From a bacterium (GTDB lineage Bacteria > Bacillota > Clostridia > Lachnospirales > Lachnospiraceae), in assembly GCA_050874485.1 (NCBI GenBank), contig JBNMKT010000001.1, positions 1 through 43,618 on the forward strand: DNA of 43,618 nt. The letters run 5' to 3'. Below the pieces are notes generated by a model. That model saw only the letters and a program-made list of their open reading frames with translations. It ran no database searches and was not told the DNA's origin. This document shows positions 10,200-33,466 of this stretch, piece by piece. Both the position numbers and the translations under genes were made by a program. Each line of letters opens with the position of its first letter. The first letter of the stretch is position 1.

Positions 10200-11351
10200 C
10201 TATGCGAGCAGGAATAATTTTTCCAGCTCATCCTCTTTCAGATCGCAGCCAATCACGCACAATCTGCCTGTGTAATCAGGCTCACCCTCACGCAGCTCAT
10301 ACTCGCCGGGAACCATGTCAAAATAGATCCAGCCGCCCTCTGCATTCTCGACCATTCCCTTTGCACGCAGGATATTGCCATAGAACTCGTCGTCACTGAG
10401 TGTCTTTAAGATATTCTCGATCTCTGTTCTGGTGTACTTATGAGGAGTCTCTTTACCCCAGCTTGTAAATACATCATCGGCATGGTGATGTCCATGGTCA
10501 TGATCATGATGGTGTCCGCAGGAGCATACACCATTCTCATCATAGTGATGCTCGTGTGCGTGCTCGTGATCATGATCGTGATGATGTTCATGCTCATCGT
10601 GGTCATGGTCGTGATGATGCTCATGTTCATCGTGATCATGGTCGTGATGCTCATGCTCATCATGGTCATGGTCGTGATGATGCTCATGCTCGTGGTCATG
10701 ATCGTGATGCTCATGTTTTGCATGTTCTTCTGCCATCAGCTTCATCTCCAGGGAATCCTGTCCCTCGATGACCTTGAGCATTGCCTCACCGGAGATCTGA
10801 TCCCACGGAGTCGTGATGATCGCAGCCTTTGCATTCAGCTGCTGCATCTGCTTGACACATAACTCCAGCTGCTGCGGTGTCGCATTCTGTGTGCGGCTCA
10901 AAATAATTGTTGTCGCATACTCAATCTGATTATTAAAGAATTCACCGAATGCCTTCATCTGCTTGCTTGCTTTCGTGGCATTGACTACAGTGATCAGCCC
11001 ATTGAGCGCTACATCATGCGTTTTTTCTACATCCATGACTGATTTCATGACGTCTGAAAGTTTGCCGACACCGGACGGCTCGATCAGGATGCGGTCCGGA
11101 TGGAACTTTTCGATTACTTCGTTTAAATTCTTTCCGAAGTCTCCCACCAGTGAACAGCAGATACAACCGGAATTCATCTCGGTAATCTCGATACCCGAAT
11201 CCTTCAGAAATCCGCCATCGATACCGACCTCACCAAATTCATTTTCAATCAGCACGATCTTCTGTCCGGTAAAGACCTCTTCAATCATCTTTTTAATAAA
11301 TGTTGTTTTTCCGGCGCCTAAAAATCCGGATACAATGTCAATCTTTGTCAT
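10200..11351 (-). CDS. COG0523/CobW-family metallochaperone GTPase with a His-rich insert
   Basis: SGFLGAGKTT, ENEFGE, GCICCS, EPSG motifs and LRAKG...IG C-terminus. AAGGA precedes ATG 11351. Confidence 0.9.
   Translation of the reverse strand: MTKIDIVSGFLGAGKTTFIKKMIEEVFTGQKIVLIENEFGEVGIDGGFLKDSGIEITEMNSGCICCSLVGDFGKNLNEVIEKFHPDRILIEPSGVGKLSDVMKSVMDVEKTHDVALNGLITVVNATKASKQMKAFGEFFNNQIEYATTIILSRTQNATPQQLELCVKQMQQLNAKAAIITTPWDQISGEAMLKVIEGQDSLEMKLMAEEHAKHEHHDHDHEHEHHHDHDHDEHEHHDHDHDEHEHHHDHDHDEHEHHHDHDHEHAHEHHYDENGVCSCGHHHDHDHGHHHADDVFTSWGKETPHKYTRTEIENILKTLSDDEFYGNILRAKGMVENAEGGWIYFDMVPGEYELREGEPDYTGRLCVIGCDLKEDELEKLFLLA
10484..10716 (-). repeat. Imperfect tandem repeat encoding a His/Asp/Glu tract (unit approx. 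EHEHHHDHDHD)
   Basis: Repeating TCGTGATGATGCTCATGCTC-like units inside the CobW-type gene. Boundaries approximate. Confidence 0.85.
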
Positions 11352-11417
11352 GTGTGATTCCTTCTTTCTAAAAATAAAATAGATTGTATAATCGTTCGGC
11401 ACCTGATCTCTGAACGA

Positions 11418-13900: not shown

Positions 13901-14187
13901 ATGTCTGCATACAAAGTCGAGATCTGCGGTGTCAACACTGCCAAACTCCCCGTACTCAAAGAAGATGAAAAAGATGCGCTGTTCGCGCGCATCCGCGAAG
14001 GTGATCCGCTTGCCAGAGAAGAATACATCAAAGGGAATCTGCGCCTTGTGCTCTCTATCATCCGGCGCTTTTCCGGCCATACAGACAACATCGATGATCT
14101 GTTTCAGATCGGCTGCATCGGGCTCATGAAATCGATCGATAATTTTGATCCAACACTTGGGGTCAAATTCTCGACCTATGCGGTGCC
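13901..14187 (+). CDS. sigG: RNA polymerase sporulation sigma factor SigG, 5' fragment (codons 1-96), interrupted
   Basis: KVEICGVNTAKLPVL N-terminus diagnostic of SigG; GNLRLVLS, DDLFQIGCIGLMKSIDNFD and KFSTYAVPMI. The reading frame then runs into element DNA and stops at 14218. Confidence 0.95.
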
Positions 14188-14210
14188 GATGATTGTACTT
14201 AGTCGAAACA
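14186..14210. other. attL junction
   Basis: CC-GATGATT followed by arm GTACTTAGTCGAAACA (14195-14210), which is the inverted complement (15/16) of the arm at 32952-32967. Confidence 0.9.
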
Positions 14211-14214
14211 ATGT

Positions 14215-15573
14215 CTAAAACTCCAGTTCAATATTGATACGTTCGTCAGTGATCACCACACGCCGGATGATCAGACGCAGGATCTCCTTCTTCTCATCCA
14301 ATGTCATATACTCCCACATATCCTTCAGATTTTCAAGCTTCTCATAGATAGCAGCCCGTTTGTCAGAAAGTGCCTTTCCGCGAACCTCATTTTCAATCTG
14401 CGCCTTGATACTCTCCAACTCCTTCTGATTTTCCTTGATCGTATCCAGCAGTAGATCATCGGCACTATCCGCGTACAGATCATACAGACGACGGATCTTC
14501 TTTGACACATTCGCGGCTCTGGCTTCCAGCATCTCAAGCGTAGAGGGCGCATTCGTCGAATCACTACTCTTGTTCGATACATCCATTTTCAGATTTAGGA
14601 TATGATCTACCACAATTTCTTCGACATCCTTCGCCCACAGCCTCGTCTGATCACAATCCGGATTTTTCACAAGATACGGCTTCGATGTCTGTTGGGAATA
14701 GCACACGAGCTTATGACCTTTCGTGCTCCACTTCTGATAGCGCATCTTCGCTCCGCATTTTCCACAGTAAACCAGTCCGGTAAGCAAGTTTTCGGTATAG
14801 TTGACCTTCTTCTTGGAGCGTTCCTCCATTTCCTGCATTGCCTTATAATAGGTTGCCTCGTCGATGATCGGCTCGTGCCGCCCCTTATACTCCTCACCAT
14901 TGTACTGAATAATACCAATATTGCTTTTTCTCTGCAAAATCTGCATCACCAGGCGCTCATATTTTAGACCAAGCGTATTCGCGATCTTTTGTGGAGACTG
15001 TCCGTCGATGTATAGCTTGTAGATCATGCGCACCTTCTCCGCGTCCTTATTCGGTACAAGGATACCCTGTTTTGAATCATAGTCATATCCATAGGGAATA
15101 CGACCGCCACCCATCCAATAGCCTTCCTTCACACGCTCTCGCATACCCATACGGGTTCTCATCCGGATGTTTTCTCGTTCCAACTGTGCAAAAGCAGCCA
15201 GTATTCCGATCATTGCGCGTCCCATCGGTGTTCCTGTATCTAACTGTTCTGTCAGAGAAACAAAATCCACACCATAAGGATCAAACAGATCCTCTATGAT
15301 ATATAAGACATCCTTCTGGGATCTCGACAATCGATCCAGCTTGTAAACAACGCACCGTTCCAATTTGCCGCCTTTGATATCGGCTATCATGTGTTGCATT
15401 TCTGGTCGGTCAATATTGCTGCCTGACCAGCCGCCGTCAATATAGAGTTCGTGGTTATCCCAACCATTGATCGTACACGCTGCCAGCAGCTTCTCTTTTT
15501 GCGCATCAATGGAATAGCCTTCCTCTGCCTGTGCATCTGTCGAAACTCGAATATATAATGCAGTTTTCTTCAT
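14215..15573 (-). CDS. Large serine recombinase (SpoIVCA/CisA-like integrase), 452 aa
   Basis: YIRVST catalytic Ser, DRLSR, GR...AQLERE, PYGY recombinase domain, CGKCG..C..C zinc ribbon and coiled coil. GGGAG RBS before ATG 15573. Stop lies 4 nt from the attL arm. Confidence 0.95.
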   Translation of the reverse strand: MKKTALYIRVSTDAQAEEGYSIDAQKEKLLAACTINGWDNHELYIDGGWSGSNIDRPEMQHMIADIKGGKLERCVVYKLDRLSRSQKDVLYIIEDLFDPYGVDFVSLTEQLDTGTPMGRAMIGILAAFAQLERENIRMRTRMGMRERVKEGYWMGGGRIPYGYDYDSKQGILVPNKDAEKVRMIYKLYIDGQSPQKIANTLGLKYERLVMQILQRKSNIGIIQYNGEEYKGRHEPIIDEATYYKAMQEMEERSKKKVNYTENLLTGLVYCGKCGAKMRYQKWSTKGHKLVCYSQQTSKPYLVKNPDCDQTRLWAKDVEEIVVDHILNLKMDVSNKSSDSTNAPSTLEMLEARAANVSKKIRRLYDLYADSADDLLLDTIKENQKELESIKAQIENEVRGKALSDKRAAIYEKLENLKDMWEYMTLDEKKEILRLIIRRVVITDERINIELEF

Positions 15574-15665
15574 TCTATCATATCTCTCCCTCTTATAATA
15601 GGAACTTTCCATCATTGTAGCAGATTCTTCTCCAGATTTCCACCTTCAATATATGGTTATTTTCT

Positions 15666-15674
15666 TTTGTCGAA
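15666..15674 (+). promoter_or_regulatory. Spo0A-box-like site upstream of the recombinase
   Basis: TTTGTCGAA (core TGNCGAA) about 95 nt upstream of the recombinase ATG. Confidence 0.35.
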
Positions 15675-15691
15675 ATTTTCCAAAAAAATGA

Positions 15692-15735: not shown

Positions 15736-15918
15736 TTATGCTGCGTTCTGTGTATCAGCTTCCTCATGTTCCGCTCTCACACTACGCACTTTCCTTGGAG
15801 CTAGGACCGTACGTTTTAAAAATTGCACCGCCCGCTCTCCAAGCTCATATTGACCACTACGAACCAGTTCTGTAACATCCTCTCCACTTGCATTGGTTAT
15901 CGTTCCTATATGTACCAT
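15736..15918 (-). CDS. 60-aa protein, paralogue 1 (candidate recombination directionality factor)
   Basis: MVHIGTITNASGEDVTELVRSGQY is near-identical to the ORF at 30184-30366. Start lies 4 nt after the resolvase stop. Confidence 0.75.
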   Translation of the reverse strand: MVHIGTITNASGEDVTELVRSGQYELGERAVQFLKRTVLAPRKVRSVRAEHEEADTQNAA

Positions 15919-15922
15919 CCGA

Positions 15923-16552
15923 TCACACCCTTTCTTTATCTGACGTTTTCTGCAGTTCCCCTGCCAGCTTATAAAAAGACGATCGTTTTAGTCCCGTCAG
16001 CCGCATCGCCTCTCTTGCCGAAATTTGTCCATTTTTCCACTCATTGAGCACCACATCCAGATTTTCCGGTATGCTGACCCTTGGGCGTCCTAAATGCTTT
16101 CCTTTCTTCTTTGCCGCATCAATACCTTGCCGTTGCCGCTTTCTTATTGTAAGCCGCTCCTGTTCCGCGATGGATGCCAGCACTTCGATCAGGATATTGG
16201 TCACCATCTCCATGATCCACTCCTGTCCCTCCAGGACATCGATCAACGTAGTCGGTAGATCCAGTACCTTCAATCTGATCTTATGATCCCGGAACCACTG
16301 CAGTTCTCCCTTGATGTCCGCTTTGTTTCGACTTAATCTGTCAAGAGACATGACGTATAACGTATCTCCGGCGCGCAGCCCAAACAATCCTTTCAATGCC
16401 TGATAACCCGGACGCTCCAAATCCTTTCCGGAAGCCTTATCTACCACTATACAATCCTCCGGAACAAACTCGCTGAGTGCCAGTATCTGGCGGTCAAGGT
16501 TCTGCTCTGCAGAACTTACCCTTGCATATCCCATGATTCTCCCTGATTCCAA
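15923..16552 (-). CDS. Small serine resolvase/invertase with C-terminal HTH
   Basis: GYARVSS..QNLDRQ, DK.SG, DRLSR, RQRQGI..AK..G..LGRP and HTH tail. GGAGG RBS. Confidence 0.92.
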   Translation of the reverse strand: MESGRIMGYARVSSAEQNLDRQILALSEFVPEDCIVVDKASGKDLERPGYQALKGLFGLRAGDTLYVMSLDRLSRNKADIKGELQWFRDHKIRLKVLDLPTTLIDVLEGQEWIMEMVTNILIEVLASIAEQERLTIRKRQRQGIDAAKKKGKHLGRPRVSIPENLDVVLNEWKNGQISAREAMRLTGLKRSSFYKLAGELQKTSDKERV

Positions 16553-16709: not shown

Positions 16710-17630
16710 TTACGCTGCGATCGAAAGTCCATCTTCCTTACTGTAATGGTAGATGTGATTGGAGAGCCTATCTTCCACCGACAACTGTATTTCATTAATG
16801 TCATGTACTACATCACACAGATATGGGAGATTTTTCACCTCTGAAACTGCCACCACCAGCGTCTCGTGAATTGATGAAGGGATAATATAGATATCTTCTC
16901 CTTTTCGATCCACGATCTGATCCATAACATCAGCAAATAACATGTACACAGCTCCAAAATGACACGCCTCATTCGTCAGCACATACAAAGGGTTGTTTAA
17001 CACCATCCGCTCATTACAAAGAAGCAGTTCCCGATCCCTTTCACTCAACATGCTGCTGATTGCATTTGTAATGCTCACAAAAGAGATATTCTCCTGTCTG
17101 GTATTCTGCAATGCAATCTCATAGACCGTCTCCTCGTCCTGTTCCCAGATTGCAAGATGCTCTTTTCTCACAATGACATAAGCTACTCCATCTCCGGAAG
17201 GGTGATCCATCTTCACATACACAACTGCCGACAGATCCAGATAGTCCCTATGGATTGCCGTATCCAGTGTTTCCCGGTTCATGTCCGCTGAGATCACCCG
17301 GAGATATAACCGGCTCTTTACGCGTTCCCAGTCCAGAAAATCATGGACTTCAATCTTTTTGATATTCTCATCCTCTGCATAATACAGCCAAATTGCCTGC
17401 ACAATTTCATCCAGCGTCATGTCATCCAGATATTCCTCATACAAAAGGTCTAAATAGAATACCGGTGATACCTTGCTGTCTGCCGACCGTATCACAATTC
17501 CTCTGCGCTTCAGACCGTTATTCTTATTCACCGTCTCTATACAGACATCGTCACCGTCACTCGCTGTCTGTCGCAGTCGTTTCAAAAGTTCCTCTTCAAA
17601 TGCCTCTCCTACTAATCGTGTTTCTTCCAT
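16710..17630 (-). CDS. DUF5688-family protein
   Basis: KNNG...GI, SP.FYL, LYVLTN...GA, YIIPSSIHE and ED.LSN.IY pattern. Confidence 0.75.
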   Translation of the reverse strand: MEETRLVGEAFEEELLKRLRQTASDGDDVCIETVNKNNGLKRRGIVIRSADSKVSPVFYLDLLYEEYLDDMTLDEIVQAIWLYYAEDENIKKIEVHDFLDWERVKSRLYLRVISADMNRETLDTAIHRDYLDLSAVVYVKMDHPSGDGVAYVIVRKEHLAIWEQDEETVYEIALQNTRQENISFVSITNAISSMLSERDRELLLCNERMVLNNPLYVLTNEACHFGAVYMLFADVMDQIVDRKGEDIYIIPSSIHETLVVAVSEVKNLPYLCDVVHDINEIQLSVEDRLSNHIYHYSKEDGLSIAA

Positions 17631-17642
17631 TGCCTTATCCTC

Positions 17643-18449
17643 CTATGCTGCCTGATTCTCATATACGATTTCATTTGCGATCTCGCTCATGTCTGCGCTG
17701 ATATTGGTCTTGATCGTCTCATCCGTGGATAATACACGCTGAAAGTCCGTTTTCAGCGGCGCGTACTTCAAAGCCTGCTTGATGACCGTTTTCTTTGCCA
17801 TCTCCTCATAGCAGGATTTCCACGGTGAGTAACTGCTCCCGAATGCCTTTGAATAGTTCGATGCATACAGATCCATCTCCTGTTTGCTCATGACACTAAA
17901 GCCGTAACCGCCATTCGATGTCTTGAACAGCCCATAGAAAAAAACCGACTCGCCACGATCAGCGATTTCCGGTCTGTGTATCAGCTTCGGGTTTAACCCG
18001 TATTCATATTCAAAATAGTCATTCTCATAAACAGTCTGTGCCTGTATCGTCTGCATCTGTCCATTACGGTATGCCAGTTCGATCAGCCCCTTGTAACCAA
18101 TCTGAAACTGACACTCCAGGACACCCTTATTCTTGTAAGGGATCAGATATGCCTGACCCAGCGGTGTGTTGGGTTCCAAACCAAGCTGCGCTGCATTTAA
18201 TAGGGCAGCAATAAAACTCATTGGCGTGCACTTCTGCAGTTCCGGTGTGTTGTTCAGCGCAGACAACGCAATCCTTGTAAAGCGCTCCGGTGTCATGACG
18301 CTAGGCAGGGCTTTCTTTAATTCCGGTCCAAGTGCTTTCACGATGTCCGGTATGGACGAGTTCTTTTTCAGCTTCACGCTGCTGTTTTCTGTCTTTGTAA
18401 CGGCAGCTGCCTGTGCCGCCAGTTCTTCCTTAATATCCTTCTGCTCCAT
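17643..18449 (-). CDS. recT: RecT-family single-strand annealing recombinase
   Basis: ERFTRIAL, CTP.SF..ALL.AAQLGLEPNTPLGQAYLIPY, FQIGYKGLI.LA.R and W...YEEMAKKTV. Confidence 0.93.
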   Translation of the reverse strand: MEQKDIKEELAAQAAAVTKTENSSVKLKKNSSIPDIVKALGPELKKALPSVMTPERFTRIALSALNNTPELQKCTPMSFIAALLNAAQLGLEPNTPLGQAYLIPYKNKGVLECQFQIGYKGLIELAYRNGQMQTIQAQTVYENDYFEYEYGLNPKLIHRPEIADRGESVFFYGLFKTSNGGYGFSVMSKQEMDLYASNYSKAFGSSYSPWKSCYEEMAKKTVIKQALKYAPLKTDFQRVLSTDETIKTNISADMSEIANEIVYENQAA

Positions 18450-18460
18450 GATAATCCTCC

Positions 18461-19396
18461 TTATGCTGCCGGTGCATACTTCACATTGAAGCGCCGGCTG
18501 GTAACTTCCTTTATATACTGGTCATAGATCTCTGGTTGCTCCTCTTTTAACCGCTTTGCATCAATACGGTTCTGATTTGCCTGTACCCATGAGATCCGGT
18601 AATCTTCTGCAACTGCATAACTCGCGTCCTGCATCTGCAGTTTAATCTTCTGATCGATCTGCTCTTTCTCCATTTCCAGCTTCTTCACAAGCTGTTCGAT
18701 CTCTGCCCTGCGTGACAGCTGCTCCTTCATGCCAAACAACTGGATCTCCTTTTTCTCGTCTCCGTGATAAAGTTGCAGTAGCATTTCAGAATATGCCTTG
18801 CTTCCGTCCGGATCAGGTGCAATGCCTTTCAACACATGATCTTCCCAGAACTGCTTTTCAATAATGATAAGGTTCTGTATCAGTTCCTCGTCACGCTCAA
18901 TCTTTCTTATGACAAATTCCCTGCCCATGATGAGCGCAGCCACATACCATGTCTTATAACCGGAAACCGCCAGATAATGCTGCACCTGCATTTGGTAATG
19001 AAGCGGCGTCTTTCCGTCGCTCCACTTATCAGCGGAATAAGCACTGACTGTCTTGCATTCCAGTCCGGCTTCTTCCCCTACGATCAGACGGTCAAAATCC
19101 GCTAACATGAACGGATGATCTTCATTCTGATAGACAGCGTTTGCCCTCCGTACCTTGAGTCCCGTTTCCTCTGTAAACCGCTTCGCTACATATTCTTCCA
19201 GATCGCGCCCCTGACGCATCGCCTCATTGTCAAAATTCTCCGTCTCCGCTGACAGCTTGTCATGGTAGACCTGAAAAGCGCTGCTATAGGGATTCATTCC
19301 GGTAATTGCACCGATGTCTGTGCCTGTCAGCCCCGTCTTTCGGATGCGGAGCCATTCTTCTTTTGGCAGATCCACGGTTGAAACTAGTCTTTTCAT
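18461..19396 (-). CDS. YqaJ-like (lambda exonuclease family) viral recombinase/exonuclease
   Basis: EWL..RK.GL.GTD, G..LE..VA..F, A.FDR, LECKT and Y..QVQHY.AV. Confidence 0.93.
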   Translation of the reverse strand: MKRLVSTVDLPKEEWLRIRKTGLTGTDIGAITGMNPYSSAFQVYHDKLSAETENFDNEAMRQGRDLEEYVAKRFTEETGLKVRRANAVYQNEDHPFMLADFDRLIVGEEAGLECKTVSAYSADKWSDGKTPLHYQMQVQHYLAVSGYKTWYVAALIMGREFVIRKIERDEELIQNLIIIEKQFWEDHVLKGIAPDPDGSKAYSEMLLQLYHGDEKKEIQLFGMKEQLSRRAEIEQLVKKLEMEKEQIDQKIKLQMQDASYAVAEDYRISWVQANQNRIDAKRLKEEQPEIYDQYIKEVTSRRFNVKYAPAA

Positions 19397-19397
19397 G

Positions 19398-19535
19398 TCA
19401 GATCATCCCTCCTTTTACGCATGGAATCATATCCGATATGAAGCGTGCCAAATCCTGTCTGAATATGGATACCAAGACGATAAGCACAGTCAATATCAAT
19501 ATAATCTCCACAGTTCCCAAGCCTCTGTTTTTCAT
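19398..19535 (-). CDS. 45-aa Flp1-like type IVb prepilin (not in ORF track)
   Basis: Hand translation MKNRG|LGTVEIILILTVLIVLVSIFRQDLARFISDMIPCVKGGMI. AGGAGG RBS, Gly(-1)/Glu(+5) and a hydrophobic helix. TGA lies 1 nt before the yqaJ ATG. Confidence 0.8.
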   Translation of the reverse strand: MKNRGLGTVEIILILTVLIVLVSIFRQDLARFISDMIPCVKGGMI

Positions 19536-19592
19536 TGTCTGTTTCCTCCTGCGGTACATTTGCCCCGCTTATAATGATCTCTGTTTTCATAG

Positions 19593-20519
19593 CTACGCCA
19601 CCATCTGATACGCACGGGCGATCATAGGATTCCCTTCCACCGTCTTGATGAACAGGTTTTCACTGTAATTCTTGGTGCGTCTGATCGGTTCTGCATGGGT
19701 AGCGAAATCAGATACTGCATTGATAAAACGGTACGCATTATTTCCTACGTGCTGCAGATCTGGAGCATCAAAGTAACGGCGCTTTAAGTCCTCCAAAAGC
19801 CTTCCGTTATTCTTCCGCTGGATGTCAGACTGCTCCACACTAAGCGGAAAGAAGGTCTGCATGTACTCGATCACCTTTTTGTCCGAGAGCTTCGTCTGAT
19901 TCAGTCGGTCGATCGTCCTTCCCAGCTCACTCATGTAACCATGTGCAAATAACAGCGTTTCCTTTGCGTCATCCATACGATCCATGATGTTTTCCGTATG
20001 CTTCGTCTGCCAAATCCGCTTTGCTGTCGATAAAGCAAGATTCAAAGTGTTGGAGCATACCACGCGTACCGGCGTCATACATACCTTAATAGAAGATGTA
20101 CCGTCATGTGAGTTCATGACCAGCAGATAGGGCGTGATCTTATCCCCTGCGATAATGTACTGTTCCGGTAGCTTGGCTAAAATCCATGTCCGCCTGCCGC
20201 CCTGCAGCGATCCAGCCGTCTCATACTTCACGCCAGCTCCCAGCAATTCATCCGTGAAGCGGAACGCATCGACATTCTGTACGACCTTGTAACGATCTGT
20301 CACAATGCCAAGCTGCTGAAAGTCTGAATCACGGTAGTTGAGCTTGTAACCCGGAATATAGAAACCTTCCTTTGTGTAGACATCCTTCTGTCTTACCTCC
20401 CAGTCCAGGCCTGCCACCTGCAGCGCAGTCTTTGAATCCGGTGCCTCACTCACCACGTTCCCCAGCCCATGCCAAGGTGTTGTTCTTGTCGAAAACATTG
20501 TCTCTACTTCATGTGCCAT
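19593..20519 (-). CDS. DUF932/DUF945-family phage/plasmid protein
   Basis: MAHEVETM..R..PWHGLG, AGLDW.V, Y..VQN, ETAGSL.GG, NSHDG, TPVRVVC.NTL and H. Confidence 0.88.
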   Translation of the reverse strand: MAHEVETMFSTRTTPWHGLGNVVSEAPDSKTALQVAGLDWEVRQKDVYTKEGFYIPGYKLNYRDSDFQQLGIVTDRYKVVQNVDAFRFTDELLGAGVKYETAGSLQGGRRTWILAKLPEQYIIAGDKITPYLLVMNSHDGTSSIKVCMTPVRVVCSNTLNLALSTAKRIWQTKHTENIMDRMDDAKETLLFAHGYMSELGRTIDRLNQTKLSDKKVIEYMQTFFPLSVEQSDIQRKNNGRLLEDLKRRYFDAPDLQHVGNNAYRFINAVSDFATHAEPIRRTKNYSENLFIKTVEGNPMIARAYQMVA

Positions 20520-21912: not shown

Positions 21913-22824
21913 TTAGTATAAGGATGTAAGAAAATCCTGCAAATTTTTATCCGTAGATGTCACAGATCCAGTTTCATGATCCCAGAACACAACATTCTTA
22001 TTTGCTAAAGAATAACAAATATAATTGCCAAACACAACCGTTTTAGAAGACTCCGACAACATTCTGTATGTAGCTGCTTTATGCTCCGGGTCGCGTGAAT
22101 TATTTGGTCCTGGAGTATCCACAAGCACTAACGAAACATCATCTGCCGTAACAAAAGGAATATTTCCTTCTACATGAACTCGAGACACCTCTGGATTACT
22201 ATTCAAACTATTCATTATATCAAAGGTCAGTTCCGGATGTGTCTGTATCAGATTTCCATCTGAATCGTACACCTTTGCTGTGAAATAGTCAGCATCATTA
22301 TCTTTGATTTCTGTAATGGTTGCAGTACATGCTTCTTGTTTTGCAGGCATTAACCGCTGTCTGAGAAGTGCATTGATTAATGTCGATTTTCCAGCACTCA
22401 TGGTAGCTACTACATTTACCTCGAAATCACTACTCTTTGCCAAATTAAATGCCTTAATAACATCCGGCTGTTTCAATTCTTCGAATGGTCCCGCCTGAAT
22501 TTCATCAAAGATCTCACTAATAGCAGCTTCCTTATCTGCAACTTCCTTTGCCGGAATATGTTCAAGCTCGATGTTTATATTTTTCTTTTTTGCATCCCGC
22601 GCCATTGCCTCGACATCTTCGTAATCTAGCGTGGTTCCCTGAAAGATAATTTTAAAATCGCGAACACTACATTCCTCAAATAGAATATCGGGCAAGTCTT
22701 CGATCCATTCCTGCAATCTTCGATCATAAAAATTCAACTGGCTGTTCTGCTTTGGAGCTACGCCATCAACTAAAACTTCTGTTTCCAAACGATACGGATT
22801 GTACTTAATTGAAATCTCTGTCAT
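21913..22824 (-). pseudogene. Truncated dynamin-like GTPase fused to a SMI1/KNR4-like C-terminal fragment
   Basis: ATMSAGKST (G1), ACTA (G2) and DTPG (G3) present; G4 NKxD and helical stalk absent. Tail FGNYICY...VVFWDHE...LQDFLTSLY. Confidence 0.7.
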
Positions 22825-22830
22825 TATTCA

Positions 22831-24153
22831 TCACCTCATATTGTAAATTATATTTTCCAGTTGCAATAAACCCGAATGTTTCAGCACCTGGTAACTTTTT
22901 TCTTCGTTATCAACTTGAACTGCTTTTTGAATATCTTCTGGATAATAACTATCAAACTGATATTCATTTTTCCTCATTTTCCTTGCCATTCTATCTAGTT
23001 CATCCAACTCATCTTCATTTAACTTTTCTCCAAAAATAGACATTTTGGCAAGATACGCCGCATATGCAGAAACAGGAGCTATATTCAATTCATCAAATCC
23101 TATTTCATGCAAATCAGCTACAATCTGTTTTAAACTGTCAGGAACAGAGTCATCTTTTCCGAACGTATCTAATTTATTTACTACAAAAATAATTTTACCA
23201 TGAAAGTTTTTCTGTACAAATAAAAGATGCTGCCTATCGTCTTCTGTTCCAAGACTTTCACCATTCATCAGATATATCAGTGCGTCCGCATCTGATGTAC
23301 TCAATGCATTCTCTGTGAGTTTTCTGTGATCCTTATTCTGTGCTGAATTAACCCCCGGTGTATCTATAAGCCACATTCTCTTCGGGGTTGTGCCAATTGT
23401 CCTAAATGAAACACCCACTTCTATCTCTGAACTATTATTGTCAACATTGTCATCCATTAAGGTATCATAATCAGCGTCCAATTCTAGAAGGTAATCATAC
23501 TCATAATATAAATTGTCTTCAAATGCCTTATTTTCAATATAATGCAACTTTGAAGTACAAGCAGCATGCTGTGTTTTGCTCACTTTTTTCCCAACTAACG
23601 CGTTTAACAGAGTCGACTTTCCGGCACTCATATTAGCAGTCACAATCACTTTTATAGGTTTTTCCTGCAAGAAATCTCGATTCTTATCCCAGCACTCTCT
23701 CATATAATCAATTTTATCAATGTTCTCTACCGATACTGAAGCATCGTATAAATACTCAAAAACCTGACGGATTTTCTTCTGATACCGCTTATGATAGATG
23801 ACTGAAAGTTCTTCATATATTTTTTCTCCTTTGTCCTGATCCATATAAGCATTCATAAAGATGCAATCAAAAACCAAACAGTATCTATATGAAAAAAATT
23901 TAAATGGTTTAAACTTTGTTGCAACCACACGTTTGGATTTCTTTTGTATATTATATGCTGTTGGAAGATCGACAGGTTCGCTTCCAACTAACTTTTGGTA
24001 ATACAAAAGCAATGTTTGCTTCGCCCACAAATCATCTTTTGAATACTTCTGAACAAAGTAGTTCAAAACATTTACATACCTCAGCCTATATTTTTCTTCC
24101 AATATAGGATGTTTTTCTAACATCTGCGATACTTCCAAATGCAAGTCATTCAT
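22831..24153 (-). CDS. Dynamin-like GTPase (440 aa)
   Basis: ANMSAGKST, ACTS, DTPG, NKLD and PVSA motifs. Confidence 0.85.
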   Translation of the reverse strand: MNDLHLEVSQMLEKHPILEEKYRLRYVNVLNYFVQKYSKDDLWAKQTLLLYYQKLVGSEPVDLPTAYNIQKKSKRVVATKFKPFKFFSYRYCLVFDCIFMNAYMDQDKGEKIYEELSVIYHKRYQKKIRQVFEYLYDASVSVENIDKIDYMRECWDKNRDFLQEKPIKVIVTANMSAGKSTLLNALVGKKVSKTQHAACTSKLHYIENKAFEDNLYYEYDYLLELDADYDTLMDDNVDNNSSEIEVGVSFRTIGTTPKRMWLIDTPGVNSAQNKDHRKLTENALSTSDADALIYLMNGESLGTEDDRQHLLFVQKNFHGKIIFVVNKLDTFGKDDSVPDSLKQIVADLHEIGFDELNIAPVSAYAAYLAKMSIFGEKLNEDELDELDRMARKMRKNEYQFDSYYPEDIQKAVQVDNEEKSYQVLKHSGLLQLENIIYNMR

Positions 24154-24250
24154 AAAATCCTTCCTCCATACAAGTCATTCTCATATTTTTTCATATGCCG
24201 GAGCCCTCATCATACATATATGTCATTTATACATCAGGCTTTGACTTCTT

Positions 24251-25210
24251 TTAGTTTATAAACTCAACATTATTTCCCTGACTTCTAAACCACATATCTA
24301 TTCCGTCTCCAAACACCTCCGCTCTTATAATATAAGCACCATTATCTTCTTCAACAATCTCTGCTGTAGGCAGTTTATCCAAAACAGCTTCCACCGATAA
24401 GCCGGTATAGCGAAATTTCACTTTCCGTAGCTTACCACCATACATAAACTGTATCCGTTTTCTAAATTCTCCCTCTTCAAAACGATTCGCATAAGGCACT
24501 CGATAGTGTTCATCGGTCACCTTTACATCTATTATCCGATCAATCCGATAAATTGTAGGAAAGGAATCGTTTAAAACATCAAAGTCTGCCCTTGTTGCTT
24601 CATCGTCAATAAATGCCGTCATGTAGAAATAAAACTCAGAAAACATGATTGCAGCAGGCATAACTTTACGATTCACAACCTTTTTGTCCTTCAAGCGCAT
24701 ATATGAAATCTCAATGTACTGATGTTGCTGAATTGCTTGACCGATCAACCACATCTTGTTAATAAACACCGATTTGTGTCTTGGCTCTACATAATGGTAC
24801 TCTTCATTGCAGATCAAGTCTTTCACTAATTTTTGATTTTCTTTCGGCACACAACAATCAAGTAACTTGTCCAACATAGCGACCATTTCTTTTTTGGTAA
24901 ACGCTCTGCTATCCAAAAGGATTTTACAAATAGCAAGAATTTCTGCATTACTAAATTTCAATTGATACAGCTGTCCTAACCGGAAACCTTTTTTTGCACG
25001 ATCATAGACCACAGAATTTACAATGCCACTGTCCACCACCGCTTTATCTAAAAACTTACGAATATCATCAATATCTCTCTGAATCGTCCGTTCATTCACG
25101 CCATAGTTATTGGCTTCCTCTGCTTTTTGGATAACAGCTCCATTCAAAAGTTTCGTGTATAGATCAAGCACTCGTTCTGTTTTATCTGATGTACCCTGCT
25201 CAACTGCCAT
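24251..25210 (-). CDS. WYL-domain transcriptional regulator (wHTH-WYL-WCX)
   Basis: N-terminal HTH GVNERTIQRDIDDIR, FSEFYFYM (WYL-equivalent), YRIDRI and C-terminal W..SQG. Confidence 0.92.
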   Translation of the reverse strand: MAVEQGTSDKTERVLDLYTKLLNGAVIQKAEEANNYGVNERTIQRDIDDIRKFLDKAVVDSGIVNSVVYDRAKKGFRLGQLYQLKFSNAEILAICKILLDSRAFTKKEMVAMLDKLLDCCVPKENQKLVKDLICNEEYHYVEPRHKSVFINKMWLIGQAIQQHQYIEISYMRLKDKKVVNRKVMPAAIMFSEFYFYMTAFIDDEATRADFDVLNDSFPTIYRIDRIIDVKVTDEHYRVPYANRFEEGEFRKRIQFMYGGKLRKVKFRYTGLSVEAVLDKLPTAEIVEEDNGAYIIRAEVFGDGIDMWFRSQGNNVEFIN

Positions 25211-27195: not shown

Positions 27196-27420
27196 TTATG
27201 CAGCATATTCTACAATTGCAACTTCTGTCAGGGCTTCTTTTAACTTTTTTACAATCTCCTCAATTCGTGCGACAACCTCTCCACTATAAGAGACTTCTCC
27301 GCACTGGCTACATTTATGGCATGGCACATGCTTAATAATAATAAAATGTCCATCCAAGTCCACCATGTAATTGCAGAAATCATCTTTCATTTCACCTTTA
27401 CAATAAAAACATTTATCCAT
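27196..27420 (-). CDS. YgiT/MqsA-type zinc-finger protein (putative antitoxin)
   Basis: C..CKG...IIIK.VPC.KC.QCGE pattern, directly downstream of a DUF4258-like gene. Confidence 0.85.
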   Translation of the reverse strand: MDKCFYCKGEMKDDFCNYMVDLDGHFIIIKHVPCHKCSQCGEVSYSGEVVARIEEIVKKLKEALTEVAIVEYAA

Positions 27421-27424
27421 GCAA

Positions 27425-27733
27425 TCATTCCTTCCTCTTTTTTAATTCTTCATCCCATTGAGATGGATCCGGTTCATACGCTGTAATTAGCCATAGCTTA
27501 TGTTCTCCAATACCTACAACTACATGCAGTTTTCGTTCGTGAATCGTCATCCCCAAGATCAAACAGCTTGGATATGGATAATCATCGGGATATTCCTCAA
27601 TAATTTCCCCGTTTTTTATTACTTCCTTAATTTCCTCATACGAAATATTCCGCTGCTGACATCTCATCAGAATATGCTGTGTTACCTCGATCGTTGCATC
27701 TCTGCACAATAATTTAATCTGATCTATGTCCAT
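27425..27733 (-). CDS. DUF4258-family protein (putative RelE-like toxin)
   Basis: T.H...R...R.I, GEIIEEYPDDYPYPSCLILG, LHVV and ITAYEP...W. Confidence 0.85.
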   Translation of the reverse strand: MDIDQIKLLCRDATIEVTQHILMRCQQRNISYEEIKEVIKNGEIIEEYPDDYPYPSCLILGMTIHERKLHVVVGIGEHKLWLITAYEPDPSQWDEELKKRKE

Positions 27734-27922
27734 GTAGTACCATCTCCCCTCGCAGCTTATATTTTCTCCATTAATATTATACCCTCTCCGTCCAAATTTG
27801 TACACACCTTTTGCTCCTGATCCGAATATCGCAATACATATGTTTCATTGCCCCTTATTTAACGTGGTCGACATTTCTAAACATTCATTTAAATAAACCA
27901 AAATCCAAGGGGGGGATTTATA

Positions 27923-28108
27923 ATGTACGATAATGAAATCAGCGATCTGATCAGTATAGAGGATCTATGCGACATGCTAGCCATCGGAAAAAACACTGCG
28001 TATCATCTGTTGAACACTAATGAAATCCAAGCCTTTCGTATCGGGCGTAGTTGGAAGATTCCTCGCCAGAGCGTCATCAACTATATCAAAAACAAAAGTG
28101 GACTCTGA
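27923..28108 (+). CDS. Excisionase-like HTH_17 DNA-binding protein
   Basis: L.IGKNTAY.L.....I.AFRIGRSWKIP. GGGGG RBS. Confidence 0.85.
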   Translation: MYDNEISDLISIEDLCDMLAIGKNTAYHLLNTNEIQAFRIGRSWKIPRQSVINYIKNKSGL

Positions 28109-28139
28109 TCCTTTTCTATGGGTAGGCAGTGTTAGCTGC

Positions 28140-28763
28140 CTACTCTCCCTTCTTTCCCTGTTCAAGTAATGCCTGGTATTGAGGATCTGTTTTTCTGAAA
28201 CAGTTCGCATTCTTAAATGTCACAGGAGACCTTTGTGCATAATTTCCCAAAATCTGATCAAACTGGTTATTCCTTGCCACTCGTTCTTCGTTTGTTTGAT
28301 GAAATTTCTTACCATCAACATAACTAACGCTGTTTCCAGCAAAATGTACATGCATAAATGAACTATCCGTTTTTTCCTTAGGTCTTGTCAAATGTGTTGC
28401 CGCAATAACTTGATATCCCATATCATAAAATTCTCGTCCCATTTCTTCAAATGCCATTACTACTAAACTTGGATTGCAGCCAACCTGACAAAATGCTTCT
28501 TCTTTAATCGAATACTGCATATGGAAAGCTCTCCTTCCACCTCTGGAATCTATATTATATACTCTCTGAATTTGATTCACCAGTTCAATCTGTTTAGCAA
28601 GGCTGTCATCATTATCTATACCATAACTTCTATAACTTACTAAATCAGTAGCATCTCTCTTATCTCTACAACAATACTTTGCGACTTTTTCAAAAGCATC
28701 TTTATTTCCATAGGCGCCTTTCTTATGATTCGAAATATTTATAAGCATTCCTTCAATTGACAT
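28140..28763 (-). CDS. Short relaxase/mobilization nuclease (HUH)
   Basis: N-terminal Tyr helix, AFH...S, YQVIAATH......HVHFAGNSVS..DGKK. Confidence 0.8.
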   Translation of the reverse strand: MSIEGMLINISNHKKGAYGNKDAFEKVAKYCCRDKRDATDLVSYRSYGIDNDDSLAKQIELVNQIQRVYNIDSRGGRRAFHMQYSIKEEAFCQVGCNPSLVVMAFEEMGREFYDMGYQVIAATHLTRPKEKTDSSFMHVHFAGNSVSYVDGKKFHQTNEERVARNNQFDQILGNYAQRSPVTFKNANCFRKTDPQYQALLEQGKKGE

Positions 28764-28993
28764 ACAATCCCTCCAATCTGTTGTTTTAATTCCGGTAAAT
28801 CATTGCACATCTGCGTAAGCTGCACGCAAAGCCGCGCTGTCATCTGTTGCTTACGCTTGTTTGTTATCCTTTTAGGAATACAGCAAGTCTCTATGTAATC
28901 TCCAACAGACATGCCATTCTCTTTTGCATGATCACTAATCGCTTGCTTTGTGATCTGTGAACATCGAAACTCTACCTTACTGTCTTTTGACAT
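28739..28993 (-). CDS. MobC-like ribbon-helix-helix accessory protein
   Basis: KVEFRCS...K..I...A...GMSV.DYI pattern. Overlaps the relaxase start. AGGAGG RBS. Confidence 0.65.
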   Translation of the reverse strand: MSKDSKVEFRCSQITKQAISDHAKENGMSVGDYIETCCIPKRITNKRKQQMTARLCVQLTQMCNDLPELKQQIGGIVCQLKECL

Positions 28994-29356
28994 CCATTTG
29001 ACCCTCCTTGTCATTTTGGGGATTCTATGAGAAGTTTGAATATATGTATAAATATAATTTCTTTATCATAATATACTTTCTATTTGTCATATTTCTTTAT
29101 TTCTGTATATTCTCTATTTTCAAGAATACCTTTTTCAGAATTACATATCTTTGATTTATATATATAACAAGTATACCTTTTGTCGGACATTTCTTCTTTC
29201 CCGATCAAAGCATCCCTCATTACAGAAGCCCTCCTTTGCATTTTTACTTATAGTATTGTTTATTCTATCCCTTCACGCTTTGTATTTGCCCACTTCTTAT
29301 CGTATAATACCGAAAAAGAAAGGTGTGCATCTCTGCCCACCTTCTCGCGGCCTGTT

Positions 29357-29761
29357 TTACACAGACATCACACATTTTTCGTTATAATACGGTATCAGTG
29401 AATCATGTGTCACAAATACCATTCCTTCTACCTTTGCCTGGGCTATAAGCAGCCGATCAAAAGGATCATTATGTCGCGGAGCATCTTCCGGTCTCACCAA
29501 AGTTTTGATCTTGTAGATATGCTCTGCAGCAATAGGCAACTGATGCAAGCCTGCTTCCACACATAATTCCACAAACGCTTCCTCTGATACAGGCATTTCC
29601 TCCGGTCGGATCTTATGCTTAATTGCGATCTCCCAAACCGAAGCCATGCTATAATACACCGTATTCCCGGATGATTTCAATGCTGCCACAACCTTATCCG
29701 GTAATTTTTCCGGAGCTGTGAATGCCCACAAGGCAATATGCGTATCTAATAACAGCTTCAT
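29357..29761 (-). CDS. PIN-domain (VapC-type) toxin
   Basis: LLDTH..LW, S.ASVWEIAIK, H.DPFDRLLIAQA and T.D. Confidence 0.92.
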   Translation of the reverse strand: MKLLLDTHIALWAFTAPEKLPDKVVAALKSSGNTVYYSMASVWEIAIKHKIRPEEMPVSEEAFVELCVEAGLHQLPIAAEHIYKIKTLVRPEDAPRHNDPFDRLLIAQAKVEGMVFVTHDSLIPYYNEKCVMSV

Positions 29762-30033
29762 CCTTCACTTGCCCCAAACATTTCTGCAATTTCATCATTA
29801 GCGCCATCAATATCGTCCGGTAACTGATACTTCCCTTTTGCAAGCCCCAGCTTAACGCCCGTATCCGGTACGGTCAGATGTATGGTAAACGGCATAGCTT
29901 TGTCCTGTACGCTCTGCTTTGCGAAGATACGCACCGCCTCTGCAAAAGATGTCCCCATGTTCTTATAAAGGCTCTCCACCTGTTCTTTGAGATCAGCGTC
30001 CATTCTCACTTGTAACGTAGCTTCTTTTGCCAT
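29758..30033 (-). CDS. RelB/DinJ-type antitoxin
   Basis: LQVRMD..LK......Y..MG....EAVRIF..Q.V....MPF. ATGA overlap with the toxin start. Confidence 0.85.
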   Translation of the reverse strand: MAKEATLQVRMDADLKEQVESLYKNMGTSFAEAVRIFAKQSVQDKAMPFTIHLTVPDTGVKLGLAKGKYQLPDDIDGANDEIAEMFGASEG

Positions 30034-30051
30034 GAGATCCCCTCCTTTTTT

Positions 30052-30069
30052 GTAATACAATTGTACTAC
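30052..30069. promoter_or_regulatory. Putative TA operator palindrome
   Basis: GTAATACAATTGTACTAC (perfect core TACAATTGTA) just upstream of the antitoxin RBS, overlapping a TACAAT -10. Confidence 0.6.
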
Positions 30070-30183: not shown

Positions 30184-30366
30184 TTATGCACTTACCTTTG
30201 TATCCGTCCCTAAATGATCGCCGTTGGCAGCCTGCTCCTTACGACTTGCCTGTAGCACACGGTTCAAATAGTCGTTTGCCCTGTCACTCAAAGCATACTG
30301 CCCGCTCTTGACTAATTCCGTGACATCTTCTCCTGCTGCATTCGTAATCATACCAAGATGTACCAT
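30184..30366 (-). CDS. 60-aa protein, paralogue 2 (candidate recombination directionality factor)
   Basis: MVHLGMITNAAGEDVTELVKSGQY. GGAG RBS. Preceded by a perfect dyad AATCATGTA-GTTA-TACATGATT (30379-30400). Confidence 0.75.
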   Translation of the reverse strand: MVHLGMITNAAGEDVTELVKSGQYALSDRANDYLNRVLQASRKEQAANGDHLGTDTKVSA

Positions 30367-30419: not shown

Positions 30420-32219
30420 TTAATCATCATCTCGATATATGTATACTGTTCCCCCGTATTTCTTTTTCATTTTATACGGAATACCCAAATGTTTCATAAG
30501 CCCATTAAACATTTCCGCTCCATATATCTGACCTTCCTTGGCCTTGGCTTTTTTATACAAACGAGATCTTGCAGATTCTATAGTAATATCTTTCCCTCTC
30601 GCTTTTCCTAGAAAAAGATCTCCATCATCATTTTCAATCAAATCAAATAATGCAGTCCTTATCAAATTAAAACCTTCAATAGCTTCTTCTTTTGATACCC
30701 CTTCTTTCGGGAACTGACATAAATATGATTCTATAATATTTCTGCATTCCTTATAATGATCCTCCAAATATTCATTTACAATTTTGTTCGTTTCATCTTC
30801 TCGGTTCAACCACGACAACTGAATACGAACAAAAGCCCATTTATCTTTTTCCAACTCAGCATCTAATTTTTCATAAAGTGCTTTCAAATAATCAAGTTGA
30901 GCAATACTCAGGTCACTTTTCACAACATTTAAAGCATCATCAATATAGCAAACACTTTTTACAGTTTTATACACCTGATTCGATTTAAGCATCATTTCTA
31001 TTAATTTGCATTGCATTTGCTGAGGAACTTTTTTATTAAACGTAGCAACAACACCAAAGTCGTTATCAAAAAATTGGAGTGCCTTATTCACCTTTTTCAA
31101 TTTTTTTGAAAAAGAATTATGTTCTCCAATCGGTATATACAAATGTACATTCTCATAACTCTCTGTCCTAATTCTGCCTAAACACTGTAAAAATTCTATT
31201 TTATTATCAGCAAATATAACAATATTGTTTCTATCCTCTACCACCGACACGCCACAATCTAATACGTATGTCAAAATACATACCTTATATGAACCTTTTC
31301 GTTGTTCCACAAAACGATCAACTTCTTTATGTGCTTCCGGATCATGTCTGTACTGCGCATCAATAAAAATACTTTTTATCTGTTTCTTTTTCAAAGCCCT
31401 ATCAAGTGCACTTCCCTTTTTCTTGTCATCAACAAAAACCATCCATTTTTTTGACTTTTGCATTAAAATCATATCTTGTAAGTCTTGATAAGTTTTAAAC
31501 AGATGGATATTTAAACCCATATATTTATTCTTTATATCCAACGTATACGTATGTGGCTTAACAAATGTATTTCGTTCCATGCACATACGTTTCAAATTAT
31601 TAGCACAATACTGCTCTATATTCTCCATCGTGGCAGACATGAATATCATTGTATATCCGCAATGAATCGGGAATGCCTTCAACTTATTGTGAAACAACAA
31701 ATTTACAAATGACAATTCTGTAGATGGGTTAAAAAGCGAGTCAGACATAAAGTAATGAGCCTCATCCATCACAATATAGGAGCAAGAATTATATATATTT
31801 AACAGTCTCTGATAAGTAGCAGGACTTGAAACAACCGATTGGCATATCTGTTCAAAGCGTTGATATGTCACTACTATAAGATTGTCTTTTATATTTTGGT
31901 CTAAAGCCCCCCCTCTTCGCAACTTTGATTCCACTCCACATATATCCGCATCTAGTTGCATCTTCAATATTTTTCTATTAACGAGATACAATATCTTCTG
32001 ACCACGTGAAATAGCCCAAGGCAACAATTGATTAAGGACAAATGTTGTTTTCCCAGACCCAGTCGGAGCTGAAATAAAAATAGCATCATTTTCTTTCCAT
32101 TTTTTATAATCATCCCCTATTTGTTCAGTAACTGTCATGATTTTATTATCAGCTTTCTTCTGATCAATTTCGTATTCTTGAATACAGCCAATGGCTTTTT
32201 CATTTTGTACATACATCAC
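30420..32219 (-). CDS. Superfamily 2 DEAD/DEAH-box helicase-like protein
   Basis: APTGSGKT (motif I), DEAH (II), MSAT (III), T.VLD.GV (V) and Q.LGRIR (VI). Confidence 0.88.
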   Translation of the reverse strand: MMYVQNEKAIGCIQEYEIDQKKADNKIMTVTEQIGDDYKKWKENDAIFISAPTGSGKTTFVLNQLLPWAISRGQKILYLVNRKILKMQLDADICGVESKLRRGGALDQNIKDNLIVVTYQRFEQICQSVVSSPATYQRLLNIYNSCSYIVMDEAHYFMSDSLFNPSTELSFVNLLFHNKLKAFPIHCGYTMIFMSATMENIEQYCANNLKRMCMERNTFVKPHTYTLDIKNKYMGLNIHLFKTYQDLQDMILMQKSKKWMVFVDDKKKGSALDRALKKKQIKSIFIDAQYRHDPEAHKEVDRFVEQRKGSYKVCILTYVLDCGVSVVEDRNNIVIFADNKIEFLQCLGRIRTESYENVHLYIPIGEHNSFSKKLKKVNKALQFFDNDFGVVATFNKKVPQQMQCKLIEMMLKSNQVYKTVKSVCYIDDALNVVKSDLSIAQLDYLKALYEKLDAELEKDKWAFVRIQLSWLNREDETNKIVNEYLEDHYKECRNIIESYLCQFPKEGVSKEEAIEGFNLIRTALFDLIENDDGDLFLGKARGKDITIESARSRLYKKAKAKEGQIYGAEMFNGLMKHLGIPYKMKKKYGGTVYIYRDDD

Positions 32220-32951: not shown

Positions 32952-32983
32952 TGTTTCGACCAAGTACGTTCATTCCAATGATT
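32952..32983. other. attR junction
   Basis: Arm TGTTTCGACCAAGTAC (32952-32967), 7 nt, CC (32975-32976), then AATGATT continuing into sigG. Confidence 0.9.
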
Positions 32984-33466
32984 ATCGGTGAAGTGCGCCG
33001 CTATCTGCGCGACAACAGCAGTATCCGCGTCTCCAGATCACTGCGGGATACCGCCTACAAAGCGATCCACGCCAAGGAGCAGCTCATGAACCGCACGCAG
33101 GAGGAGCCGACCATTGAGGAAATTGCTGCTGAATCCGGCCTGACCAAGGAGGAGATCGTCTATGCCCTCGATGCGATCCAGAGCCCGGTCAGCCTCTATG
33201 GTCCGGTCTACACAGACGGCGGCGATACGCTCTATGTCATGGATCAGATCGCAGACAAGAAAAACAAAGAATCCCGCTGGATCGAGTCGCTCTCTCTATC
33301 TGATGCGATGGAGCGGCTCGGTGAGCGGGAGAATTATATCATAAAATTACGTTTCTTTGAGGGCAAGACACAGATGGAAGTGGCCCAGGAGATCCACATC
33401 TCACAGGCGCAGGTATCCAGACTCGAAAAATCCGCCCTGAATCATATGAAAAATTATCTGAAATAG
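32977..33466 (+). CDS. sigG: RNA polymerase sporulation sigma factor SigG, 3' fragment (codons 97-258)
   Basis: MIIGEVRRYLRDN..IRVSRSLRD, ALDAIQ.PVSL, DGGD..YVMDQI and GKTQMEVA.EI.ISQAQVSRLEK. Continues exactly from ...STYAVP. Confidence 0.95.

Follow-up and report, generated by a model that had tools for sequence, protein, structure and literature searches.

Published elements that interrupt sporulation genes target sigK, spsM, kamA, gerE, spoVFB, spoVR or yabG, and in the available portions of these reports the restriction of the rearrangement to the mother cell is explicit (PMC4191935, PMC5595907, PMC10747680, PMC8270828, PMC5499854, PMC5025042, bioRxiv 10.1101/2022.02.25.481979). For the C. 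difficile skin element it is described that a small factor driven by sigma-E confines excision to the mother cell, and that the integrase alone integrates (PMC5025042, available part). Integration by the integrase alone and RDF-dependent excision have likewise been shown for SPbeta (PMC5499854, available part). SigG, the product of the gene considered here, is the late forespore sigma factor (PMC4191935, available part). A full-text literature search, with subscription papers and bioRxiv supplements mostly outside it, found no paper on the splitting of sigG or sigF by an element of this kind. Sigma70_r2 is found in 12 of 1069 LSR target clusters in the accessible part of the supplements of Durrant et al., which leave the genes unnamed (PMC10083194). 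The word "sporulation" is absent from the main text of PMC13626063 and PMC12823448, and the accessible part of PMC12286644 holds nothing on a sigG target.

The window, by which we mean the whole stretch of 43,618 nucleotides that was analysed, contains a mobile element of 18,789 bp inserted inside sigG at the codon for Pro96. The 5' part of the gene (13901 to 14187, plus strand) comprises codons 1-95 and the CC of Pro96 and matches positions 1-96 of the SigG model NF006071 (E 8e-45); the 3' part (32977 to 33466, plus strand) starts with the host A which completes Pro96, continues with codons 97-258 and matches positions 97-257 of the same model (E 1e-78). Translated across attL, the 5' part gives a truncated product of 105 amino acids with its stop at 14218 in the list of open reading frames. 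As in the skin class, a sporulation gene is interrupted precisely in frame and a recombinase lies at one end of the element; the mother-cell-specific target of that class is not found, the target being SigG.

At attL the host (B) arm (14170 to 14185, plus strand) is followed by the predicted crossover dinucleotide CC (14186 to 14187, plus strand), which is the dyad centre and is common to all 53 pairs of junctions described below, and by the element (P') arm (14188 to 14210, plus strand) consisting of a G, an ATGA block and a 16-nt arm (14195 to 14210). At attR the element (P) arm (32952 to 32974, plus strand) contains a 16-nt arm (32952 to 32967) and a TCAT block mirroring ATGA, and leads into the central CC (32975 to 32976, plus strand), again the dyad centre and shared by the pairs. 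A motif YTCnMC, made of Phe-Ser-Thr codons, lies at 14170-14175 in the host arm of attL and ends 10 nt from the CC, and the host B' motif (32987-32992, Gly-Glu codons) is at the same distance of 10 nt; the motif ends 14 nt from the CC in the P' arm of attL and in the P arm of attR (32955-32960). The original prediction described each junction as CC, 7 nt and a 16-nt arm, with the arms inverted-identical at 15 of 16 positions. This layout is borne out at all its positions, the chance of such an agreement in register being ~1e-8, and the 16-nt arms have two matches only in the window and likewise two only in the genome. In the reconstructed attP the dyad is best centred on C|C, with 19 of 25 pairs, the next-best centre giving 12. 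A shift by 4 nt of the TCGACC in the host arm had also been noted; it is found as described (9 nt from the CC, versus 13 nt in the element arm) and extends to both attB halves (10 nt versus 14 nt). The same SigG of 258 amino acids is restored by any crossover from 14183 to 14194, so that the window alone cannot separate a crossover at CC from one within ATGATT, and the choice between CCA and CCG is silent at the protein level. A third copy of the distal att motif is present at 15660-15680 (minus strand), upstream of the integrase gene and just past a terminator-like hairpin, and is possibly an autoregulatory binding site.

The integrase gene (14215 to 15573, minus strand) is intact and has PF00239, PF07508 and PF13408 above cut-off. 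The enzyme of 452 amino acids which had been predicted is present when read from the ATG at 15573 (466 amino acids if from an upstream ATG), and the stop codon is 4 nt from the P' arm, at the margin of the element. The protein has Ser11 and Cys270/273/291/307; Y7-R9-V10-S11 together with C270/C291/C307 are invariant in the alignment of homologues (A1), and the nearest solved relatives include the TP901-1 and A118 integrases. With a resolvase domain carrying the Ser nucleophile, a recombinase domain and a zinc ribbon all found, it has the make-up of a large serine recombinase. The attP, of about 48-50 bp and symmetric, with a central dinucleotide common to attL and attR, is that of a serine integrase.

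The cargo, all of it on the minus strand, begins with a small serine resolvase (15923 to 16552, PF00239). Domain searches place DUF5688, RecT, a YqaJ exonuclease and DUF932/TIGR03299 at 16710 to 20519, and a MqsA-like/DUF4258 pair, a relaxase with a NikA/MobC-like gene and a PIN/RelB pair at 27196 to 30060. The MqsA-like/DUF4258 and PIN/RelB pairs resemble toxin-antitoxin systems. The relaxase is short (207 amino acids, PF03432, 28140-28763), and the NikA/MobC-like gene is at 28739-29014 (PF21983). Between these blocks lie two dynamin-like GTPases, one of them weakly LeoA/LeoBC-like, and a WYL protein (21913 to 25210); the first GTPase looks truncated, and other contigs of sequencing run X1 skip parts of the block. 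A DEAD/ResIII-type helicase, also recognised by domain search, is encoded at 30420 to 32219. The GC content is 0.41 in the element versus 0.48-0.49 in the flanks. No head, tail or packaging genes were found among the 25 element ORFs scanned with Pfam and the five scanned with PHROGs, and the gene content does not appear to be that of a prophage. An integrase and a relaxase, with no type IV secretion matches among the ORFs scanned, give the element the make-up of an integrative mobilizable element. The claim that the integrase and its sites form a complete set goes too far for excision, as no directionality factor was identified in the element.

The last gene of the element (32304 to 32930, minus strand) encodes a protein of 208 amino acids with weak HNH_repeat similarity. 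A search for its homologues gave 12 loci, and in 11 of these the gene starts at a distance of ~45-60 nt from the att core; the homologues include one in phage L211 (11394-11999) and one in the 2.5-kb mini-element L064 (8880-9437). An excised circle would place the window gene after the integrase, in the same direction. Where the gene is in direct orientation to the 5' half (L064, L313, L322) it stands behind the sigG promoter.

The position of the crossover was tested on relatives. An alignment of 62 integrase homologues led to 240 loci from genomes, metagenomes and viral contigs, and 15 more were added to give 255; in the genome contigs a search with the single integrase protein gave no matches and the search with the alignment did. 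Of the 255 loci, 125 have a junction where sigG or sigF is broken off at this codon. The carriers number dozens of gut Clostridia, with isolates of Flavonifractor, Agathobaculum and Hominifimenecus among them, besides phages of these bacteria. The CC is kept at the Pro position in 87 of 87 3' junctions, for which CC was not a search requirement, and in 49 of 51 5' hits, the remaining two being intact rpoD. Paired junctions were obtained for 53 non-duplicate elements including the window, after one duplicate and one unparsed pair had been left out; it should be noted that the pair finder demanded CC at the 5' junction, and that many halves lie on separate contigs of metagenome-assembled genomes. 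Of the in-register dinucleotides, CC alone is shared between attL and attR throughout the 53 pairs, compared to 49 pairs for AT, 45 for TG and 44 for GA, and the two steps which overlap CC by one base are common to 31 and 38 pairs. In seven pairs the contiguous block that attL and attR have in common consists of nothing but CC. The dyad is best centred on C|C in 51 of the 53 elements, and the median symmetry of the att sites is 17/24 in true pairs versus 13/24 in mismatched pairs. CC is also shared by all of 23 further pairs, from genomes where the integrase is away from the junction; the spurious pair G508b was left out of these.

Phage relatives of the element, among which L211, L225 and L235 carry terminase and portal genes, provide free attP sites, and both free attP and integrated forms of related phages are present in public contigs. 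In the free sites the first base after CC differs from the matching attR. The attP of the L235 group and the attR of L236, L256 and L266 are identical at 20-22 of 22 arm bases and at the CC, and the next base is different; the attP of L211 equals the attL of L210 from the CC outward. ATGA is missing altogether from the L235-group attP, and the ATGATT repeat is missing from the phage attP of both the L235 and L279 groups. In phage integrases which group near that of the window (L207, L211; the tree is a quick one, used for grouping only) the G after CC is element-derived. The viral contigs searched contain no exact relative of the window attR arm, and the stretch of Dulem virus 39 that was examined contains no attP. 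MT839977 was considered as a circular form and rejected, as it carries an attR.

Since CC is common to all pairs and the phage attP sites diverge from attR right after it, the crossover of the family is at CC, and we regard this as almost certain. A crossover within the longer ATGATT repeat, which would leave CCG as the restored codon, is very improbable. It is true that no in-register identity between the junctions of the window is longer than ATGATT, that an A after the CC would make the reconstructed attP one base more symmetric, and that attL and attR agree at the base after CC in 38 of 53 pairs, where 26 would be expected. This last excess may reflect shared base composition or a recognised position, and symmetry at the base next to CC (12 versus 14 of 54) does not discriminate between crossovers. 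The repeat is, however, off the dyad centre and not universal in the pairs (AT in 49 of 53, TG in 45 of 53), it is missing from the L235 and L279 phage attP, and its ATGA is mirrored by TCAT on the opposite arm and so seems to behave as a binding motif. Serine integrases moreover cut at the symmetry centre and leave a 2-nt overhang (PMC5499854, PMC3783163, available parts of both). The paired relatives (53 of 53, and the further 23) and the comparison of phage attP with attR thus uphold the original prediction of CC rather than ATGATT. Given a CC crossover throughout the family, the G after CC in the window attL would be element-derived and the host codon CCA. The wording of a CCG-to-CCA "codon change" was loose, since with this crossover the host allele was CCA all along and the CCG of attL combines the host CC with a base from the element. 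Strand exchange at a central dinucleotide is established for serine integrases, and CCA restoration is what this chemistry leads one to expect. As the two codons are also synonymous, the CCG/CCA point taken alone is a minor one; what matters more, and was overlooked in the original prediction, is that the target is a gene of the forespore and so of the germ line.

The pairs also suggest why the integrase uses this site. YTCnMC lies 14 nt from the centre in P (35 of 53) and P' (40 of 53), and 10 nt from it in B (51 of 53) and B' (53 of 53). An inner mirror of TCAT and ATGA is found in the consensus half-sites of both element arms and of the right host arm. The ATGA of the right host arm derives from Met-Ile codons, and the distal host motifs derive from Phe-Ser-Thr (B) and Gly-Glu (B') codons. 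The ATGA block, judged from its conservation, would be a mirrored integrase-binding motif and not an overlap. The host site would be given by the codons for FSTYAVPMIxGE, with a YTCnMC motif 10 nt from the centre on either side; together with the inner mirror this explains why the ATGA repeat exists. The sigF gene shares these codons and is therefore occasionally targeted: four 3' junctions are in sigF-like genes. Such genes are split at the equivalent Pro codon by the same integrase family in L038, L039 and L040 (position 1343) and in L284 (position 11378), and in L038-L040 one and the same element arm is joined to three different host sequences. The model for the Listeria LI/A118 integrase is similar in that attP is symmetric, the distal motif for the zinc domain is shifted towards the centre in attB, and crossover is at the central dinucleotide; the shift is 5 bp for the LI integrase versus 4 nt on both halves here, where the motif is deduced from conservation (PMC3783163, available part). 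The CC core, the 14- and 10-nt offsets and the FSTYAVPMIxGE codons give exact PCR targets and an integrase/att set that can be tested directly.

The host has one sigG, and its sigF, sigE and sigK-like frames are uninterrupted; spo0A, spoIVA, spoVT, spoVAD and two SASP genes are above cut-offs. Of 53 split alleles, 50 keep both sigG halves open; among the other three, one contains Ns, one has stops located 5' of the portion that was matched, and one goes back to an indexing slip in the script. The median dN/dS values of the 5' and 3' halves are 0.073 and 0.058 for split alleles and 0.035 and 0.014 for intact genes, which are different sets; for the window against intact sigG they are 0.05 and 0.027. 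Both halves of split sigG thus appear to be under purifying selection, and much of the divergence may predate insertion. Two genomes of the host's family, G207 and G413, have loci identical to ones named as Lachnospiraceae (L078 and L073, respectively), and this assigns the host to the Lachnospiraceae. A sigG locus was obtained from 18 of 22 congeners, and it is intact in 16, split in one (G016) and cut by a contig end in one. The Pro codon of the 16 intact genes is CCG in eight, CCC in four, CCA in two and CCT in two. In G016 the gene is split at the same codon with similar arms, and both junctions are present. No close integrase was found among the 22 congeners, and no conspecific empty allele among the congeners searched. 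The closest congener (G018) has an empty site (CCC) beside the same neighbouring gene as the window. In the window sigG is convergent to spoIIGA-sigE, with a beta-CASP hydrolase gene in between (33485-35935), instead of being placed downstream of sigE and co-oriented with it; this convergent neighbour is also present in the closest congener. An ORF at 10200-11402 resembles a CobW-type GTPase and has, by eye, a long His/Asp/Glu repeat, the source of the largest repeat families in the window.

No excised attB or attP junction of the window strain was found in the assembled contigs of eight runs (X1-X8), contigs being a form of data in which rare variants are dropped. The integrated element is near-identical in runs from two studies. 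Skips of ~19 kb in contigs of X5-X8 were considered as excision and rejected; they have short sides and ends off the att sites, and are read as intact sigG of other organisms. One X1 contig breaks at 32978-33007, with no break at attL, and was not counted as excision.

Relatives of 2.5-2.7 kb keep both att sites and, as genes, only the integrase, a small gene and one cargo gene. Three small sigG elements (L059, L078, L122) have, by eye from their translations, host-type metabolic cargo and no mobility genes; the products look like a flavoprotein reductase with regulators, a microcompartment shell-type protein and a sugar phosphorylase. A stand-alone 3' sigG half is present in 71 of the 80 genomes with the integrase clade, and a full-length SigG in no more than two; 50 of the 80 were chosen because the junction had already been seen, and two entries are one genome.

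The element of the window is of the direct-repeat, excision type. Other relatives have the two sigG halves inverted. In the complete genome G425 (C1:1953954-2004017; L395, L401, L396) the halves are opposed at a distance of 49.6 kb, the inverted att sites flank mraZ, rsmH, mraY, ftsW and ftsZ, and the integrase is 860 kb away among housekeeping genes. G413 (C150:59110-85858; L398, L399) has the same layout over 26 kb, with the integrase on another contig, also among housekeeping genes. Inverted halves over 2.4 and 2.9 kb are found in G024 (C2:93044-97115; L400) and L162 (2751-5635), where the integrase is adjacent or inside. When the att sites are inverted the reaction can only be inversion, without loss of DNA, and this fits a germ-line switch. 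Inverted att sites around essential genes would imply a reversible reaction kept by the host, and the occurrence of the layout in two genera (G425, G413) points to a domesticated inversion switch.

A small ORF of 40-65 amino acids stands directly before the integrase in 180 of the 242 loci with room for it. The family protein could be assigned to no family of Pfam or PHROGs, Foldseek gave no match for it in the PDB, and its predicted fold is a hairpin, a short helix and a long helix. Promoters before the small gene were compared to a sigma-F consensus in 96 de-duplicated loci, which are related to each other. A match with at most one mismatch is present in 23 of the 96, compared to 0.9-1.5% of shuffles and 0.7% of 300 control genes; with at most two mismatches the number is 56 of 96 versus a background of 10-12%. 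The sigma-E and sigma-A consensus sequences match in 0 of 96 each, sigma-K in six of 96, which is the background level, and sigma-G, whose consensus overlaps that of sigma-F, in 17 of 96. In clostridia the promoters of sigma-F and of sigma-G are similar to one another and to their B. subtilis counterparts (PMC3789822, available part). We infer that the family small gene probably encodes a directionality factor under a sigma-F-type promoter.

In the window this slot is occupied by a 60-aa ORF (15736 to 15918, minus strand), a candidate directionality factor with three relatives at 75-77%. No HMM match between it and the family small protein was obtained after four iterations, and the hhalign probability is 0.1%; its structural model has the same order of elements as the family protein, with low confidence. 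Directly upstream of it there is no sigma-F-type promoter (the best site has four mismatches), and between the ORF and the integrase there is a hairpin with a run of T after it. Sequence comparison reveals a second copy, 53% identical, at 30184 to 30366 (minus strand). Before this copy there is a sigma-F-type match with two mismatches at 30425, a weak one among 32 such matches in the element.

A split gene which is needed in the forespore brings the rearrangement into the chromosome that is inherited, and the rearrangement must then be reversible, or the element would be lost. The explanation which we favour is that sigG was interrupted at the CC of Pro96 by an element of the mobilizable type whose large serine recombinase is intact, and that excision of this element would rejoin the gene with CCA. 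Excision would likely occur inside the forespore and supply sigma-G, and the excised circle, which could not be diluted in a dormant spore, would likely re-integrate after germination. Re-integration by the integrase alone would follow established serine-integrase behaviour, and the small gene before the integrase, under its sigma-F-type promoter, would provide the directionality factor, as suggested by the family. Taken as a whole we hold this to be probable. For the window element by itself the chances of forespore-timed, reversible excision are slightly better than even; such excision is the most likely mechanism, with its support coming from the family, and is presumptive for this element. 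That many gut Clostridia assemble sigG by reversible, sigma-F-triggered germ-line recombination, with an origin in a phage integrase acting at the Pro96 CC, with elements that excise and re-integrate, and with domestication in some lineages into host-owned chromosomal inversion switches of 2-50 kb whose integrase is hundreds of kb away, is a generalization to which we give an even chance.

Against the favoured explanation it can be said that 16 of 18 intact congener loci and the relaxase and toxin-antitoxin genes make the element look recently acquired, and with recent acquisition dN/dS mostly reflects the time before insertion; dN/dS is also higher among split than among intact pairs, in sets that differ. 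One may then suppose that the crossover is the same CC but that the element is a recent, selfish integrative mobilizable element that lands in the conserved sigG codons and is excised only sporadically or for transfer, whose carriers are impaired in sporulation while spores come from cured cells. Several observations agree with this: the integrase-proximal ORF lacks both a sigma-F-type promoter and homology to the family small protein, the cargo includes the relaxase, MobC-like and toxin-antitoxin genes at a lower GC, the excised junction was not found in contigs of the eight runs, and the same integrase family occurs in tailed phages. Site-specific LSRs also commonly target conserved genes (PMC10083194, available part). 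We nevertheless think it rather unlikely, because the sigma-G regulon genes of the host and both sigG halves are undamaged, near-identical copies occur in runs of two studies, and pure parasitism hardly accounts for the enriched promoter, the minimal elements or the inverted forms of the family. Excision could also be tied to sporulation and yet not be reversed: it would take place no later than septation, or else in the forespore with no re-integration following, and the element would persist as a circle, through transfer or in siblings that do not sporulate. The free attP forms in viral contigs are compatible with this, as is the circle itself, which would let the integrase gene read across attP into the 208-aa gene and the helicase, in the order found in phage L211. 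This we consider improbable, as elements of ~2.5 kb without mobility genes persist and inverted arrangements lose no DNA, both of which fit better with re-integration or re-inversion.

If the favoured explanation of forespore excision and re-integration is true, it describes a developmental DNA switch in the bacterial germ line, widespread in gut anaerobes with spore-driven transmission. The site rules (CC core, motif offsets and codons) are also a caution to annotators, for whom a "broken" sigG is no evidence of lost sporulation.

The closest described system is skin in sigK (SpoIVCA in B. subtilis; CD1231 with the directionality factor CD1234 in C. difficile), in which a serine recombinase at one border of the element precisely splits a sporulation sigma gene, as it does here (PMC5025042, bioRxiv 10.1101/2022.02.25.481979, available parts). 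In the same sources the likeness extends to sizes from ~2.5 kb upward, unrelated cargo and a small partner gene controlled by a sporulation sigma factor, the latter proposed here for the family. Unlike skin, the target is sigG, and sometimes sigF, which is needed in the forespore and lies on the inherited chromosome; the family promoter is of the sigma-F and not the sigma-E type, and some hosts have inverted att sites and a distant integrase. SPbeta in spsM (SprA/SprB), vfbin, vrin, gin in gerE and yin in yabG are, like the present family, serine-integrase elements or live phages which interrupt sporulation genes (PMC4191935, PMC5499854, PMC5595907, PMC10747680, available parts). SPbeta has a central AA within a 16-bp core, and here there is a CC within a longer shared core (PMC5499854, available part). 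As far as these sources go, SPbeta, vfbin, vrin, gin and yin target mother-cell genes, whereas the present family targets a forespore gene, and excision of SPbeta is specific to the mother cell, so that the spore keeps the prophage. [quoted passage not shown]
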